A DNA stretch of 64,000 bases from a virus (taxonomy: Duplodnaviria; Caudoviricetes): the IMG/VR virus record IMGVR_UViG_3300033075_000428, positions 64,001 through 128,000 of that record; one strand, 5' to 3'. The position numbers and the translations under genes are program-made. This document shows, in pieces, positions 38,262 through 43,108 of the stretch. Positions within the stretch are counted from its first letter, which is position 1. The number at the start of each line of letters is the position of its first letter. The notes under the pieces were generated by a model that made no database searches, had not been told where the DNA came from, and saw nothing but the letters and a program-made list of their open reading frames with translations.

Positions 38262-38347
38262 TTTACAACTTCATTAAATATGTTAAGCCCAACAACTAGG
38301 GGGGAATTGTCGGGCTTAACACGAGGCAACGGAAAACAAAAATTGAG

Positions 38348-38765
38348 TGGACGTGGGGGGAGTCGAACCCCCGTCCGAACATCGGTCTATCTCATGGAAT
38401 TACAATCATCGGTCTCAGTTAGTAAGTACTATCATCATTACGTCGAGACCTTCATGATGACGCCCGTCAGTTTGATCATGTCCTACACACGAGCAGTACG
38501 GATTCAACTCCTGTGTAGTAAGTTCATAATGGAGCCTTGACTCCTGCGACACGATGTTCAACTACCTATGAACTAATGCTGACATCGTGGTATCAAACAG
38601 CCTGAGCGTATTGATACTGGGGAACATTAGCCTCTGGGTAGAGGTTAATGACCTTAGCTTGCTTGTTGCCAGTTATGGCTTGTCCAGTTGTATTTACATG
38701 CTCCACCAGACTAGCATGGATTGCCACTTCGACTTCTCTTTGCCCGTCGAAACCTTTACACGCCC
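38348..38765 (-). ncRNA. ssrA: tmRNA (418 nt); tag peptide (A)GNKQAKVINLYPEANVPQYQYAQAV encoded at 38670-38593
   Basis: 5' GGGCGTG...TTCGAC; 3' GGGGGTTCGACTCCCC-CACGTCCA with a G3.U70 pair; ATAACT-GGC resume context. Confidence 0.92.
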
Positions 38766-39791: not shown

Positions 39792-40928
39792 TTAATCAAT
39801 GTTATTGTTGACAACCCATAGGACGGTTACTATTGAAACTACTAAGGATAAGAAAAATGCGAGCACTACGAAGCCAGTAGTTGGTTCTACTTCCAAGTAA
39901 GAGAACTCAACAAACTCTCTCCGCTTGAACTGTCGATTGATTTGTTTGTCACTATAGCTGATGAAATCATAAAGGTTCAAACAGTCCTTCCCATTGTCAA
40001 GAAGGTAGTTGCGCAAATCTATCTTCAACCGTTCTGACTTTGACCACGAGAACACGTCTGCCCACTTCACCTTGTTGTAGTTGTTACTATCAACACCGAT
40101 ACAAACGACTAGCTCATTCTTGTTCCCACCCTGCCAATACGACTGTTGATACAACGCGGCTTCTGGAGGAACATTTGCGAAGTAGAGTATGAACATCCTG
40201 CATTGCTTCGAAGGTCCAATTCTACCATTCAAACGACGAAGTTGCCAGTCTGAGTAGTTGAAATAGGGATTGTTCTTCGGTGCACCAAGAATCGTTGGTT
40301 GTTGCCAGTTCTTCTGAATCTCAGGATAGTCGAACAGGTGATAACGCTTTATCTCATTGTCACCAACACGCTCAAAGTGAAGTATCGACTGGTCAGCTGG
40401 CTTGATGTAGTTGGTGTAACTCTCGCTAAACGCTAACGGGTAAGAGCGTTCATTGACACCGTCCCAACGTGTGAGATACATGTTACCATCTTGTAGATAG
40501 TAATCTCTGTCCATGTCAACAAAGTGTTGATTATTGAACAGAGAGACAAGAGTACTGTAGAGTTGTTTCGAGCAAGAAAGGGTGGTTCCCTGAGTAGTTT
40601 CAATCTCCCAATGCTCTGGGTGATTCTGACGGTAAGAACAGTCATAGTAAACAGTGTGTGCTGTCTTACCAGAACCAACTGTCTTTGAGCACATCTTACT
40701 TATCCATTCATCCCACTCTTCATAGTACCTTGCTTCTTTCACGAGAGAACCTTTGTACTCAACGTCATTCCTCATGCTGTTGGAAGCACAGGATTTGAAC
40801 CCAAAGATTACAACCAAGCAGACAGCAAACGGGAAGAAGTATTCCCACAATGCTGTCTGCTTTGGAAACCATCGCCACAGTATGAATACTGCAATGAGTG
40901 GGAGTATTAGGCTGAAGTAGATAGACAT
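39792..40928 (-). CDS. membrane protein with a large extracytoplasmic domain
   Basis: Two N-terminal and one C-terminal TM segments; YWQGGNKNELVV; paired with the LemA-like gene. Confidence 0.7.
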   Translation of the reverse strand: MSIYFSLILPLIAVFILWRWFPKQTALWEYFFPFAVCLVVIFGFKSCASNSMRNDVEYKGSLVKEARYYEEWDEWISKMCSKTVGSGKTAHTVYYDCSYRQNHPEHWEIETTQGTTLSCSKQLYSTLVSLFNNQHFVDMDRDYYLQDGNMYLTRWDGVNERSYPLAFSESYTNYIKPADQSILHFERVGDNEIKRYHLFDYPEIQKNWQQPTILGAPKNNPYFNYSDWQLRRLNGRIGPSKQCRMFILYFANVPPEAALYQQSYWQGGNKNELVVCIGVDSNNYNKVKWADVFSWSKSERLKIDLRNYLLDNGKDCLNLYDFISYSDKQINRQFKRREFVEFSYLEVEPTTGFVVLAFFLSLVVSIVTVLWVVNNNID

Positions 40929-41541: not shown

Positions 41542-41883
41542 TTACTCAGCCCAACGAGTTGGTTCAATCCGTTGGACTAAACTTACTGCAAGGCGAAAAG
41601 AGCTCATCTGTGTTTCCTCACAGAAGCATGCGGTAGCAGTGAGCTGATTGTCTAAGTCAGGCTCATTGAAGAACGCAACGCTATTGCCACTATCATGCAA
41701 TTGTGTCGTAGCCAGCATGAGCTTGTTTTCCGTCTTCACATCCAGAAAGACAATCGTCTCATTGTTCCACTCACGAAACTCTTCTGGAAATTTCAGAGCG
41801 TAACTTGCCAATGCGTGTGCTCCTTGAACATATCGATAATGATGCGGAAGGTCTCGACGAATCAAGACATACATCTTTTTCAT
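41542..41883 (-). CDS. peptidyl-tRNA hydrolase type 2-like protein
   Basis: MYVLIRRDL...VQGAHA...W...IV.L...F.EPDLDNQLTA; start at ATG 41883 overlapping the upstream TGA. Confidence 0.75.
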   Translation of the reverse strand: MKKMYVLIRRDLPHHYRYVQGAHALASYALKFPEEFREWNNETIVFLDVKTENKLMLATTQLHDSGNSVAFFNEPDLDNQLTATACFCEETQMSSFRLAVSLVQRIEPTRWAE

Positions 41884-42488
41884 TTCGATTCGTCTGCTGT
41901 GTTTTCCACCACAAGGTCTTCCCGACGAATGTTCGTATTGTGAGGAAATACGTAATTCGGGTGAGACAGGAGCCAATGCGCGAATGCTTCACCACGAGCT
42001 TCTTTCCACAACGCATCCTGTTCTTCTCGTGTTGGAACAACAATTGGAGTTGGGTCACCAAACTCAAGTGAGTCATGAATAGTTATGACAACTTTCCACT
42101 GTTGCGGGGTCAACCGATTTGTGAAGTTCGGTACTTCAACTTTGTGGTATGGTGTTCCACTACGAAGTGAATACGCCAAGTTGAAAATACGGAAAGCAGT
42201 ACAGCAGCTGTAATGCGCATTCTCGATAGCGAAGTACTCTCTGTTCATCTCACTATATGTACTGAGAGGAATAGGATTAGCAAGTGTACCGTCTTCCTTA
42301 GTGATTCCAGCAACTTGACGAAGTGCTTCGTACACTGAGTTGATTTCAAGAAGCTTGTCAAGCCTCTCTCCTGGAAGCTCAACAGATTCAAAATACATCT
42401 TCAATGCATTTTTCGTGTTGTTCTCTCTGTTCAATCGAATGAATCTCGTAAGGAACTTGATTACATTCTTTGCTTGTTCTCTCGTCAT
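41880..42488 (-). CDS. hypothetical protein co-transcribed with the Pth2-like gene
   Basis: 202 aa; R..NLAYSLRSG.PY.KVE motif. Confidence 0.7.
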   Translation of the reverse strand: MTREQAKNVIKFLTRFIRLNRENNTKNALKMYFESVELPGERLDKLLEINSVYEALRQVAGITKEDGTLANPIPLSTYSEMNREYFAIENAHYSCCTAFRIFNLAYSLRSGTPYHKVEVPNFTNRLTPQQWKVVITIHDSLEFGDPTPIVVPTREEQDALWKEARGEAFAHWLLSHPNYVFPHNTNIRREDLVVENTADESK

Positions 42489-42515
42489 GATTGTACCCTT
42501 TGGGTGTGTTGAAAA

Positions 42516-42590
42516 TTAAACAGTTTCAAAGACATTACCAACATGCCCCAATGGAGGGTCACGAGTTGAGTTCTATGTGAAGAAGTTCAT
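42516..42590 (-). promoter_or_regulatory. amber-interrupted leader peptide MNFFT(UAG)NSTRDPPLGHVGNVFETV
   Basis: GAGGA SD, ATG 42590, TAG 42575-42573, TAA 42518-42516. Confidence 0.6.
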
Positions 42591-42618
42591 GTGTTCCTCA
42601 TTGTGAAAATTGAACGTG

Positions 42619-42691
42619 TTCCCTGTGCTGGAATTGAACCAGCGCGGTCATGAATTTAGAGTTCACCGCTCTACCACTGAGCTAACAGGGA
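42619..42691 (-). tRNA. tRNA-Sup(CUA), amber suppressor
   Basis: Cloverleaf: TCCCTGT/ACAGGGA acceptor, GCTC/GAGC D-stem, GTGAA-CTCTAAA-TTCAT anticodon arm, GCTGG-TTCAATT-CCAGC T-arm. Confidence 0.9.
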
Positions 42692-42695
42692 ATAT

Positions 42696-42733
42696 AAAAA
42701 GCCCAACGTGCTTCGTGGAAGAGAACGTTGGGC
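42696..42733 (-). terminator. intrinsic terminator immediately upstream of the suppressor tRNA
   Basis: GCCCAACGT-N15-ACGTTGGGC-TTTTT. Confidence 0.75.
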
Positions 42734-42761
42734 TCGCGATAAACAGAATTCTAATGTCTAT

Positions 42762-42833
42762 CTAGGCATTCAAGGGGTCTGTCTGGGTCATGTTGATTGA
42801 TGGATTTGCGTGCATGAACATCGGGGTCAGCAT
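42762..42833 (-). promoter_or_regulatory. UAG-terminated leader ORF MLTPMFMHANPSINMTQTDPLNA*
   Basis: ATG overlaps the upstream gene's stop (ATGCTGA); ends at TAG 28 nt before the terminator stem. Confidence 0.45.
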
Positions 42834-43108
42834 TTTCGTTTAGCAGTCGAGGTGCTGACCTTGCTCTTTATAACGATCGTGTGCGTGAAATATGAGTACC
42901 GTGGGTCATCAGCACCAACAATCCACACAACGTCTGACAAGGAGTAGAGTTCTGAGATTTCTTCTTCTTCTGAAGGAATATCCCAAGGAGTATCCTTAAG
43001 ATAGGTCTTGACCCCTTCGACGATGTTAGCGACAATTTGTCGGTCGATAGAACCAGTGATGCGATTCTTCCGATATCGGACAACGCTGAGAGAGATAATT
43101 TCATCCAT
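42827..43108 (-). CDS. hypothetical protein
   Basis: Start placed at MDEIISL. Confidence 0.55.
   Translation of the reverse strand: MDEIISLSVVRYRKNRITGSIDRQIVANIVEGVKTYLKDTPWDIPSEEEEISELYSLSDVVWIVGADDPRYSYFTHTIVIKSKVSTSTAKRKC

Follow-up and report, generated by a model that had tools for sequence, protein, structure and literature searches.

Short leader peptides that control a downstream gene through the ribosome are known in several forms. The RAPP-type arrest peptides ApdA, ApdP and ApcA, together with the monitoring substrates SecM and MifM, are short upstream ORFs that end in or contain R-A/G-P-P (RAGP in SecM), and a ribosome stalled there is thought to melt a stem that hides the Shine-Dalgarno (SD) sequence of the downstream gene (PMC7897499, PMC10951233, PMC10987492, PMC12992588). 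These peptides are 50-170 aa in length with a signal or transmembrane segment, sense Sec/YidC activity through a pulling force, and sit upstream of secretion genes in bacteria. In the leaders ErmCL and TnaC, which respond to a drug or metabolite, the stalled ribosome remodels downstream RNA or blocks termination to induce the next gene. The release factor gene prfB (RF2) uses an in-frame UGA early in its reading frame as a sensor of termination efficiency, with a +1 frameshift that regulates the release factor itself. A synthetic switch in which TAG is inserted in the tna leader makes downstream expression depend on readthrough by a tRNA(CUA) (Liu et al. 2011, as reviewed in PMC6412442, section 6); it is engineered, acts on transcription through Rho and depends on an unnatural amino acid. 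Phages that recode stop codons, such as Lak and crAss-like phages, encode tRNA(CUA) or tRNA(UCA), and suppressor tRNAs are also seen in their standard-code relatives; that work describes genome-wide recoding of late genes and mentions no leader and no hydrolase (bioRxiv 10.1101/2021.08.26.457843).

Here we describe a phage locus that combines a suppressor-type tRNA with a tiny reading frame, which is probably built so that two downstream genes are translated only when that tRNA reads through a UAG stop. It lies in a 64,000-nucleotide stretch (hereafter the window) of the IMG/VR virus record IMGVR_UViG_3300033075_000428, and all coordinates given are on the minus strand. About 50 other uncultured phages share the same design, of which we found no published description. 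Compared to the RAPP-type peptides, the nascent chain is about 8-20 aa, the input would be decoding of a stop codon by a phage tRNA, and the output is a gene pair including a Pth2-like gene. Compared to prfB, the competitor is a suppressor tRNA, and the stop, whose identity tracks the tRNA anticodon, lies in a separate leader and in relatives also inside the Pth2-like gene. In contrast to ErmCL and TnaC, no small-molecule input is implied and access to the stall site would be gated by a stop codon, although the R-x-P-stop endings of some leaders resemble the Arg-Pro-stop of TnaC. In contrast to the synthetic tna switch, the present element is natural, appears translational and is paired with its own tRNA gene.

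The first-pass annotation had described five parts in transcription order, all of which are present at the stated coordinates, and its observation is confirmed. A 23-codon ORF ending in TAG (42833-42762) overlaps by its ATG the TGA of the upstream 92-aa gene (ATGCTGA). It is followed by an intrinsic-terminator-like hairpin (42735-42696) with an 11-bp stem, whose arms are 42735-42725 and 42709-42699, an inner 4-bp stem, and the run TTTTTATAT. This hairpin forms in the minimum-free-energy fold, and was missed by a simple terminator scan only because its loop is longer than 8 nt. Directly after the T-run, ARAGORN placed a tRNA with anticodon CUA (42691-42618), which scores 63.8 bits against the Rfam tRNA model RF00005 (gathering score 29), thus being a canonical cloverleaf of the amber suppressor type, with a short variable loop and no encoded CCA. 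A sigma-70 promoter scan found no minus-strand promoter near the tRNA. A blastn search of the tRNA against phage records gave only weak generic tRNA matches, from which no amino-acid identity could be assigned, and an exact pattern search for the tRNA core in viral contigs gave no hit. Its anticodon arm is, however, homologous to that of the tRNA(CUA) in L004 (L numbers denote the loci collected for comparison), with one compensatory pair. Next comes the leader (42590-42516), preceded at a distance of 4 nt by the SD sequence GAGGA (42599-42595). It reads M-N-F-F-T, UAG (42575-42573) and N-S-T-R-D-P-P, with the RDPP codons at 42563-42552 and Pro codons CCU and CCA, and continues for 10 more codons to a TAA. 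From SD to stop, its sequence is GAGGA-N4-ATG AAC TTC TTC ACA TAG AAC TCA ACT CGT GAC CCT CCA ... TAA. The fifth part is gene X (42488-41880, 202 aa), which overlaps by ATGA the gene of a 113-aa Pth2-like protein (41883-41542). As the annotation had noted for the window, TAG is the rarest stop, ending 26 of 282 ORFs in the complete 190-kb genome. The genome is not recoded, with a coding density of 0.92 in the standard code; none of its same-frame ORF pairs separated by TAG looked like programmed readthrough, and a search for RF-1 domains in the phage genome found none.

The 113-aa protein matches the Pfam family PTH2 (PF01981) only weakly, at 18.9 bits against a cut-off of 23, whereas its homologue in L004 scores 24.4 bits. 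A profile of the family against the PDB Pth2 entry 2zv3 gave an E-value of 1.3e-4, and the protein matches phrog_3668 ('hydrolase'). The AlphaFold model (pLDDT 91.3) is predicted to adopt the Pth2 alpha/beta fold; the top 11 Foldseek hits are all Pth2/Bit1 structures, with TM-scores of 0.69-0.75 (about 0.72) and E-values down to 1e-6. Among the Pth2 catalytic positions, the Q-x-x-H-A motif and the Asp aligned to the D-A-G-x-T motif are invariant in the family (Q20, H23, A24 and D76), but the GxGK loop of solved Pth2 proteins, with its lysine, is absent, which leaves hydrolase activity uncertain. Gene X has no Pfam or PHROG match. The C-terminal roughly 100 aa of X belong to a family found directly upstream of Pth2-like genes, and in a typical relative (X of L011, 102 aa) the family core is predicted as a long basic helical hairpin (pLDDT 87). 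Fold searches for X against the PDB with Foldseek, with VIA-align and in the ESM Atlas returned only generic helical hairpins, and a complex prediction of X with the Pth2-like protein gave no verdict in either direction.

Relatives of X were hard to detect. Direct searches with X found nothing in IMG/VR or GenBank phages, nor did a word-indexed protein search, and a single-sequence search of IMG/VR with the Pth2-like protein found no relative. Only an exhaustive HMMER search found two relatives of X, which opened the comparison. We then collected 82 loci encoding the Pth2-like protein; this collection of Pth2-like loci with an upstream AY..R.G..Y..(V/I)E gene, which the first-pass annotation had proposed as a test, came out positive. 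A hidden Markov model built from 23 X sequences hits directly upstream of the Pth2-like gene in 73 of 83 loci (the 82 plus the window). A linked suppressor tRNA is present in 51 of the 82 loci, and on the same strand nearby in 47 of 69 distinct loci, usually 5-10 nt after the Pth2-like stop; it starts within -10 to +11 nt of that stop in 37 of 57 cases. By contrast, it lies upstream of the leader in the window, L004 and L045. Since the loci were collected through the Pth2-like gene and dereplicated only by exact sequence, these counts and those below are not independent evolutionary events. In the closest syntenic relative (L001-L003), X occurs with no leader, tRNA or Pth2-like gene.

Further analysis of the regions upstream of X revealed a conserved leader design. 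In 49 of 64 loci, the 160-nt window upstream of X contains an SD-led mini-ORF that reads M, 1-7 codons, one or two stop codons, and then R-[A/D/G/S]-P-P, K-P-P-stop or R-x-P-stop. Controls gave 7 hits in 512 kb, or 0.0022 per window, a roughly 350-fold enrichment, although the pattern, like the stem windows below, was defined after the data had been inspected. The leader of the window is the only SD-led TAG...R[ADGS]PP in the 190-kb genome. An SD-like sequence precedes 37 of 43 distinct leaders, which are 8-25 codons long and have no hydrophobic segment, and with X and the Pth2-like gene downstream they are not members of the Sec/YidC-monitoring class, although the element would work like that class. 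The internal stop matches the anticodon of the neighboring tRNA in 42 of 42 distinct loci, comprising 38 TAG/CUA, 3 TAA/UUA (L035, L078 and L090) and 1 TGA/UCA (L069, both in its leader and inside its Pth2 gene). In 20 distinct loci the Pth2-like gene also carries one in-frame stop, which matches the anticodon wherever a tRNA is seen. Some related phages may be recoded, for example L096 with two TAGs in Pth2, where a TAG in the leader would be less diagnostic; a local check of the related loci by ORF coverage was noisy and showed no clear TAG recoding of the flanks. Three further loci from genome bins (L097-L099) show the same design.

The Arg-containing motifs among the 43 distinct leaders are RDPP (8), RGPP (7), RAPP (3) and RSPP (2), with RDPP in the window. 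These are the published arrest-competent or arrest-permissive tetrapeptides and are among the most depleted in bacterial proteomes (PMC12992588, PMC10951233, PMC7897499), though RDPP is called 'partially permissive', weaker than RAPP or RGPP (PMC12992588). Arg is encoded by both codon families (AGR 16, CGN 10), which suggests that selection acts on the peptide; however, the Pro codons (CCUCC) double as an anti-SD sequence, and part of their conservation could be at the RNA level only. In the computed fold of the window, the 5' arm CUCGUGACCCU (42565-42555), spanning the Thr-Arg-Asp-Pro codons, pairs with a 3' arm (42499-42481) that contains the SD-like AGGGU and the UCAUGACGAG around the X start codon (ATG 42488-42486). 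The duplex has a computed energy of -16.1 kcal/mol against a control mean of -7.7, and 1% of control windows are as stable. In 33 of 43 distinct leaders, at most 2% of random windows pair as well with the SD/AUG window of X, with a median z of -3.6, while the stem sequences differ between loci; the stem of the window is among the weaker ones (z = -2.8). The structure ends at the start codon of X, and no hairpin plus U-run lies between the leader and X, unlike attenuators of the trp/his type with alternative terminator and antiterminator hairpins.

Altogether, we propose that the region 42691-41542 is one copy of a widespread phage module consisting of a suppressor tRNA, a sensing leader, gene X and a Pth2-like gene, and that the leader is a translational switch reporting whether the phage's own suppressor tRNA is decoding its stop codon. 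We give this reading a probability of about 0.68. By default, the Thr-Arg-Asp-Pro codons would pair with the SD and AUG of X, so that X cannot be initiated. A ribosome starting on the mini-ORF would leave at UAG (codon 6), 15 nt before the Pro codons, if RF1 wins, and the stem would stay closed. If tRNA(CUA) wins, the ribosome would continue into N-S-T-R-D-P-P and stall on RDPP as on RAPP-type arrest peptides, its footprint holding the stem open; X would then be initiated, and the Pth2-like gene would follow by translational coupling through the ATGA overlap. The two proteins would therefore be made in proportion to the balance between suppressor tRNA and RF1, and in many relatives the single cognate stop inside the Pth2-like gene would act as a second gate. 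The gene pair, the leader pattern and the stop-anticodon concordance were found by comparing sequences, and the closed state rests on computed folds; the departure at UAG, the coupling, the aminoacylation of the tRNA and its use at UAG are inferred, the last two with only the indirect support of the concordance. Elongation arrest is likewise inferred, from published arrest biology and the amino-acid-level conservation of R-x-P-P, and on a nascent chain of only 12-13 residues it is assumed. The likeliest role of X and the Pth2-like protein would be to handle by-products of suppression, such as by hydrolysing dropped-off or stalled peptidyl-tRNA, or to set the level of suppression.

The interpretation in the first-pass annotation, a two-stage circuit sensing UAG termination efficiency, is thus supported only in part. 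Its core idea, that a short SD-led leader with an in-frame TAG followed by RDPP gates X and Pth2 according to UAG readthrough, is supported by the conservation of the leader in dozens of distant phage contigs, by the covariation of its stop with the anticodon, and by the pairing of its Pro codons with the ribosome-binding site of X. The proposed first stage, in which readthrough of the 23-codon ORF carries ribosomes through the terminator and switches on the tRNA with positive feedback, is not supported, and the full circuit is considered very unlikely. In its favor, the ORF continues in frame past TAG through the whole hairpin to a TGA inside the tRNA, and there is no room for a promoter between the T-run and the tRNA, so the tRNA must be transcribed through the hairpin. 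However, the ORF has no SD, its ATG is buried in an 8-bp stem (GGUCAGCA/UGCUGACC), and the arrangement is not conserved in any related locus: the tRNA(CUA) sits 6 nt after a tRNA-Ser in L004, within a tRNA cluster in L045, and downstream of the Pth2-like gene in most loci. In random sequence of 44% GC about 30% of stops are TAG, giving no evidence beyond chance for this ORF, which is probably not a functional leader, and leaky terminators before tRNA genes need no special mechanism. The ORF and the terminator, the latter specific to the window, are not part of the conserved device.

Two other readings appear unlikely. The internal stop could gate a ribosome that merely transits the anti-SD region without a true arrest, the Pro-Pro codons being conserved as RNA (CCUCC pairing with GGAGG). 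The Pro codons are indeed strongly biased to CCU and CCA, which pair with SD sequences, the stem always involves them, and many leaders have KPP-stop or QPP-stop rather than R-x-P-P. Yet the Arg two positions before Pro-Pro is kept through switches between AGR and CGN codons and usually lies outside the stem, and the second position is restricted to A, D, G or S, the published arrest set. Pro-Pro-stop and Arg-x-Pro-stop endings are themselves reportedly slow-termination contexts (Hayes, Bose and Sauer 2002; TnaC), and a pause therefore fits all leader classes. Alternatively, the main output could be transcriptional, with translation or stalling in the leader-X-Pth2 region preventing premature termination (Rho-type polarity); where the tRNA lies 5-10 nt after the Pth2-like gene, suppression would then also control the suppressor tRNA itself as a positive feedback switch. 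The abutting tRNA implies co-transcription in most loci, and the synthetic tna switch shows that such a device works (PMC6412442), but in the window, L004, L045 and L097 the tRNA is upstream of the leader and cannot be controlled in this way, the conserved structure sequesters an SD rather than forming a terminator/antiterminator pair, and no rut-like or terminator element was identified. This reading could coexist with the translational model. That the short ORFs are chance features of an ordinary phage tRNA region, unrelated to X and Pth2, could be argued from the triviality of a 5-codon ORF ending in TAG and from the scarcity of relatives of X by direct search, but is contradicted by the leader enrichment, by the concordance across three stop codons and by the significant stems that vary in sequence.

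If the model holds, this is a natural sensor of nonsense suppression, an arrest-peptide switch whose input is the decoding of a stop codon by a phage tRNA. It would give a testable role to suppressor tRNAs in phages that have not recoded their genomes, link them to a conserved and previously unnoticed partner set of X and a Pth2-like protein, and offer an entry point to how phages monitor or tune stop-codon reassignment during infection. The leaders would also be very short natural arrest sequences of about 8-20 residues, including RDPP and KPP-stop forms, useful for studying minimal requirements for stalling and as compact parts for amber-suppression reporters in genetic-code-expansion work. 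A more far-reaching reading, speculative and unlikely on present evidence though not excluded, is that the module is the feedback controller of stop-codon reassignment in phages. In this view, the leader and the in-frame cognate stop in the Pth2-like gene measure suppression, while X and the Pth2-like protein act back on the suppressor tRNA, on its peptidyl or aminoacyl form, or on release-factor competition. With the tRNA co-transcribed behind them in the common gene order, they would set or switch the cell's effective genetic code during infection. It would supply the missing regulator in models of how phages move a standard-code host to an alternative code, and explain why suppressor tRNAs persist in non-recoded phages.

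Among GenBank phages, tblastn with two typical X proteins gave no match, and no cultured phage with the complete module was found. Myrna-type mycobacteriophages have a Pth-like gene and a tRNA(cta) 180 nt apart, but no X gene and no recognizable leader were seen there. In the window, the Pth2-like stop is followed by a hairpin (UCUGGGUCG/CGACCCAGA, 41528-41483) and AUAUUUU, which, judged from sequence alone, is likely the end of the transcription unit.

The region resides in a complete 190,353-bp phage genome with direct terminal repeats and 44% GC, which encodes six tRNAs and a tmRNA and uses the standard code, with a coding density of 0.92 and TAG ending 26 of 282 ORFs. Each of the elements listed by the first-pass annotation was confirmed on the minus strand. 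A 23-codon ORF (42833-42762) ends in TAG and overlaps the stop of a 92-aa gene, followed by a strong hairpin with a T-run at 42735-42696, which is evident in the computed fold but was missed by a simple terminator scan owing to its long loop. Directly after the hairpin lies a tRNA with anticodon CUA (42691-42618), identified by ARAGORN and by Rfam with a score of 63.8 bits. At 28 nt further on, GAGGA-N4-ATG opens the frame M N F F T UAG N S T R D P P L G H V G N V F E T V UAA (42590-42516), which precedes the 202-aa gene X (42488-41880). X in turn overlaps a gene encoding a 113-aa protein (41883-41542) by ATGA.

The 113-aa protein is Pth2-like by its predicted fold. The Pfam match is sub-threshold, at 18.9 bits against a cut-off of 23, whereas a profile of 43 homologues finds archaeal Pth2 in the PDB at an E value of 1.3e-4. 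The AlphaFold model, with a pLDDT of 91, matches only Pth2/Bit1 structures at the top of the list, with a TM of about 0.72. The Q-x-x-H-A motif and an aligned Asp are invariant; however, the GxGK loop of solved Pth2 proteins is missing, so any hydrolase activity remains putative. For X, the predicted structure of a typical relative (X of locus L011, pLDDT 87) is a basic helical hairpin, and fold searches returned no informative match.

X is nearly an orphan, and an exhaustive HMMER search gave two relatives. One of them (loci L001-L003) is a syntenic relative of this phage, in which X stands alone behind a terminator, with no tRNA(CUA), leader or Pth2-like gene. The other (L004-L009) is a distant phage, in which tRNA(CUA) is followed by M T Y UAG V N R A R S P P ... 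UAA, an X-like gene and a coupled Pth2-like gene. A search with the Pth2-like alignment then revealed a third lineage in IMG/VR (L010-L012), the leader of which is AGGAGG-N6-M I W T UAG A R A P P UGA, followed by X, the Pth2-like gene and a gene encoding a 198-aa protein, with tRNA(CUA) further downstream. This 198-aa protein (phrog_11575, unknown function; L011 3288-3884) is inserted between the Pth2-like gene and tRNA(CUA) in the L010-L012/L077 lineage, and its gene is coupled to the Pth2-like gene by an ATGA overlap. Further scans gave 80 metagenomic loci and three contigs from genome bins. The loci were gathered through the Pth2-like gene and dereplicated only by exact sequence, so the counts below are not independent evolutionary events. 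An HMM built from 23 X sequences hits directly upstream of the Pth2-like gene in 73 of 83 loci, most of the rest lacking upstream sequence. A same-strand suppressor tRNA is present in 51 of 82 loci, or 47 of 69 distinct loci, including three loci with tRNA(UUA) and one with tRNA(UCA). The tRNA starts within -10 to +11 nt of the Pth2-like stop in 37 of 57 cases, whereas it lies upstream of the leader in the window, L004, L045 and L097.

Nearly every locus with enough sequence upstream of X possesses an SD-led mini-ORF, which reads M, 1-7 codons and a stop. In 15 of 43 distinct leaders a second identical stop follows a few codons later. The frame then runs for 0-10 more codons and ends in one of three ways: R-[A/D/G/S]-P-P, x-K/Q-P-P followed by a stop, or R-[A/G/S]-P followed by a stop. 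A strict form of this pattern occurs in 49 of 64 160-nt windows upstream of X, compared to 7 occurrences in 512 kb elsewhere in the same loci on both strands. In the whole 190-kb genome, the only SD-led TAG...R[ADGS]PP is the one at 42590. The pattern was defined after examples had been seen, but a roughly 350-fold excess is far more than that can explain. In L055, L061, L063, L066, L080, L085, L092 and L098, the leader is the tail of a longer upstream protein-coding gene, the own TAG stop of which is followed in frame by x(2-5)-P-P, a second TAG, and then x(3-4)-[R/K]-[D/G]-P-P.

The internal stop matches the anticodon of the neighbouring tRNA in 42 of 42 distinct loci where both are visible, comprising 38 TAG/CUA, 3 TAA/UUA and 1 TGA/UCA, although some of the relatives may be recoded. 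For instance, L090, which carries tRNA(UUA), has M S G F T UAA I F D C R A P P, and L069, which carries tRNA(UCA), has M K S H I UGA L V F I R G P UAA. The base after the internal stop is a purine in 49 of 58 cases. In addition, the Pth2-like gene itself carries one in-frame stop in 20 distinct loci, usually at a fixed, variable-residue position just before the conserved W-x-N-x-T motif. Loci with a single stop of this kind are L013-L017, L032, L035, L042, L045, L049-L053, L056, L060, L062, L064, L068, L069, L074, L075, L078, L087 and L089, whereas L062, L074 and L097 have it at a second site (...W-E/G-x-[TAG]). This stop is again cognate in every locus where a tRNA is seen: TAG with CUA, TAA with UUA (L035, L078) and TGA with UCA (L069). 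Close homologues show ...PDT-[TAG / TAA / TGA]-W-x-N-G-T, so the stop identity has switched together with the anticodon. In Prevotella phage Lak-A2 (L094, MK250019.1), a tRNA with the ochre-type anticodon UUA lies about 700 nt upstream of the Lak Pth2-like gene, with a weak X-like frame between them, although Lak phages are known for TAG recoding.

RAPP and RGPP are the strongest known arrest tetrapeptides, RDPP and RSPP are arrest-permissive, and all four are among the most depleted tetrapeptides in bacterial proteomes (PMC12992588; also PMC10951233, PMC7897499 and PMC10987492). The R-x-P-P motifs of the leaders are exactly this set, with RDPP in 8, RGPP in 7, RAPP in 3 and RSPP in 2. The Arg is encoded by both AGR (16) and CGN (10) codons, which points to selection on the peptide. 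The other leader classes end in Pro-Pro-stop or Arg-x-Pro-stop, which are slow-termination contexts. In computed folds of 43 distinct leaders, the Pro codons and the next roughly 20 nt form the 5' arm of a stem, the 3' arm of which is the SD, and often the AUG, of X. In 33 of 43 leaders, at most 2% of random windows from the same locus pair as well with that SD/AUG window, with a median z of -3.6, and the stems differ in sequence from locus to locus. In the window, CUCGUGACCCU (42565-42555, the T-R-D-P codons) pairs with AGGGU and UCAUGACGAG (42499-42481), with a duplex energy of -16.1 kcal/mol against a control mean of -7.7 kcal/mol (z = -2.8). The distance from the Pro codons to the ATG of X is 38-85 nt across loci and 63 nt here.

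We propose that the SD of X is hidden by default, and that a ribosome on the mini-ORF would be released at UAG if RF1 wins. If tRNA(CUA) wins, the ribosome would run into RDPP and pause there, its footprint would keep the stem open, X would be initiated, and the Pth2-like gene would follow by coupling. Our evidence is computational throughout: the anatomy of the module and its conservation are shown, whereas the stall and the induction are inferred from known arrest-peptide systems. Plausible roles of X and the Pth2-like protein are clearing peptidyl-tRNA produced by readthrough and stalling, or limiting suppression. Full-text literature searches found no paper that combines phage, suppressor tRNA and PTH2, and none describing such leaders; the main survey of phage recoding mentions neither a hydrolase nor a leader. 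A synthetic counterpart exists, in which TAG was inserted in the tna leader (PMC6412442). Typical X proteins have no match in GenBank phage records; however, the pairing of a Pth2-like gene with tRNA(cta) does extend to cultured Myrna-type mycobacteriophages. In Mycobacterium phage ScoobyDoobyDoo (L095, MZ820085.1 29416-30026), an annotated "peptidyl tRNA hydrolase" (gp79) is followed 180 nt later by tRNA(cta) (gp80) within a tRNA cluster, but we recognised neither an X gene nor an R-x-P-P leader there.

The circuit envisaged by the first-pass annotation is only partly supported, as its first stage, in which the 23-codon ORF and the terminator would control the tRNA, is not conserved. A tRNA-Ser lies 6 nt before tRNA(CUA) in L004, a tRNA cluster occupies this position in L045, and the tRNA lies downstream of the Pth2-like gene in most loci. 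Moreover, the 23-codon ORF lacks an SD, and its ATG is buried in an 8-bp stem (GGUCAGCA...UGCUGACC, 42826-42861, minus strand) that spans the end of the 92-aa gene. It remains true that the tRNA has no room for its own promoter after the hairpin and must therefore be transcribed through it, but that needs no special mechanism.

The phage-encoded tmRNA (window 38345-38765, minus strand; Rfam 100 bits) has an unusual tag, GNKQAKVINLYPEANVPQYQYAQAV, whereas the similar tmRNA of the syntenic relative L001 has a tag ending in the canonical ...HAALAA. L004 also carries a tmRNA about 700 nt upstream of its tRNA(CUA). The suppressor tRNA, tmRNA and Pth2-like protein may form a translation quality-control set. 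Outside the window, about 30.5 kb before its start, a 76-aa gene (genome 33132-33551, minus strand) ends in ...VELT-TAG and is followed immediately, in frame, by the ATG of a membrane-protein gene (TAGATG); amber readthrough would fuse the two, though this may be chance. Two genes downstream of the module, the 378-aa membrane-associated protein (window 39792-40928, minus strand) has its best matches, at 31-37% identity, in Lak megaphages, Tenacibaculum jumbo phages and an uncultured 595-kb phage, which hints at a Bacteroidota-infecting lineage.
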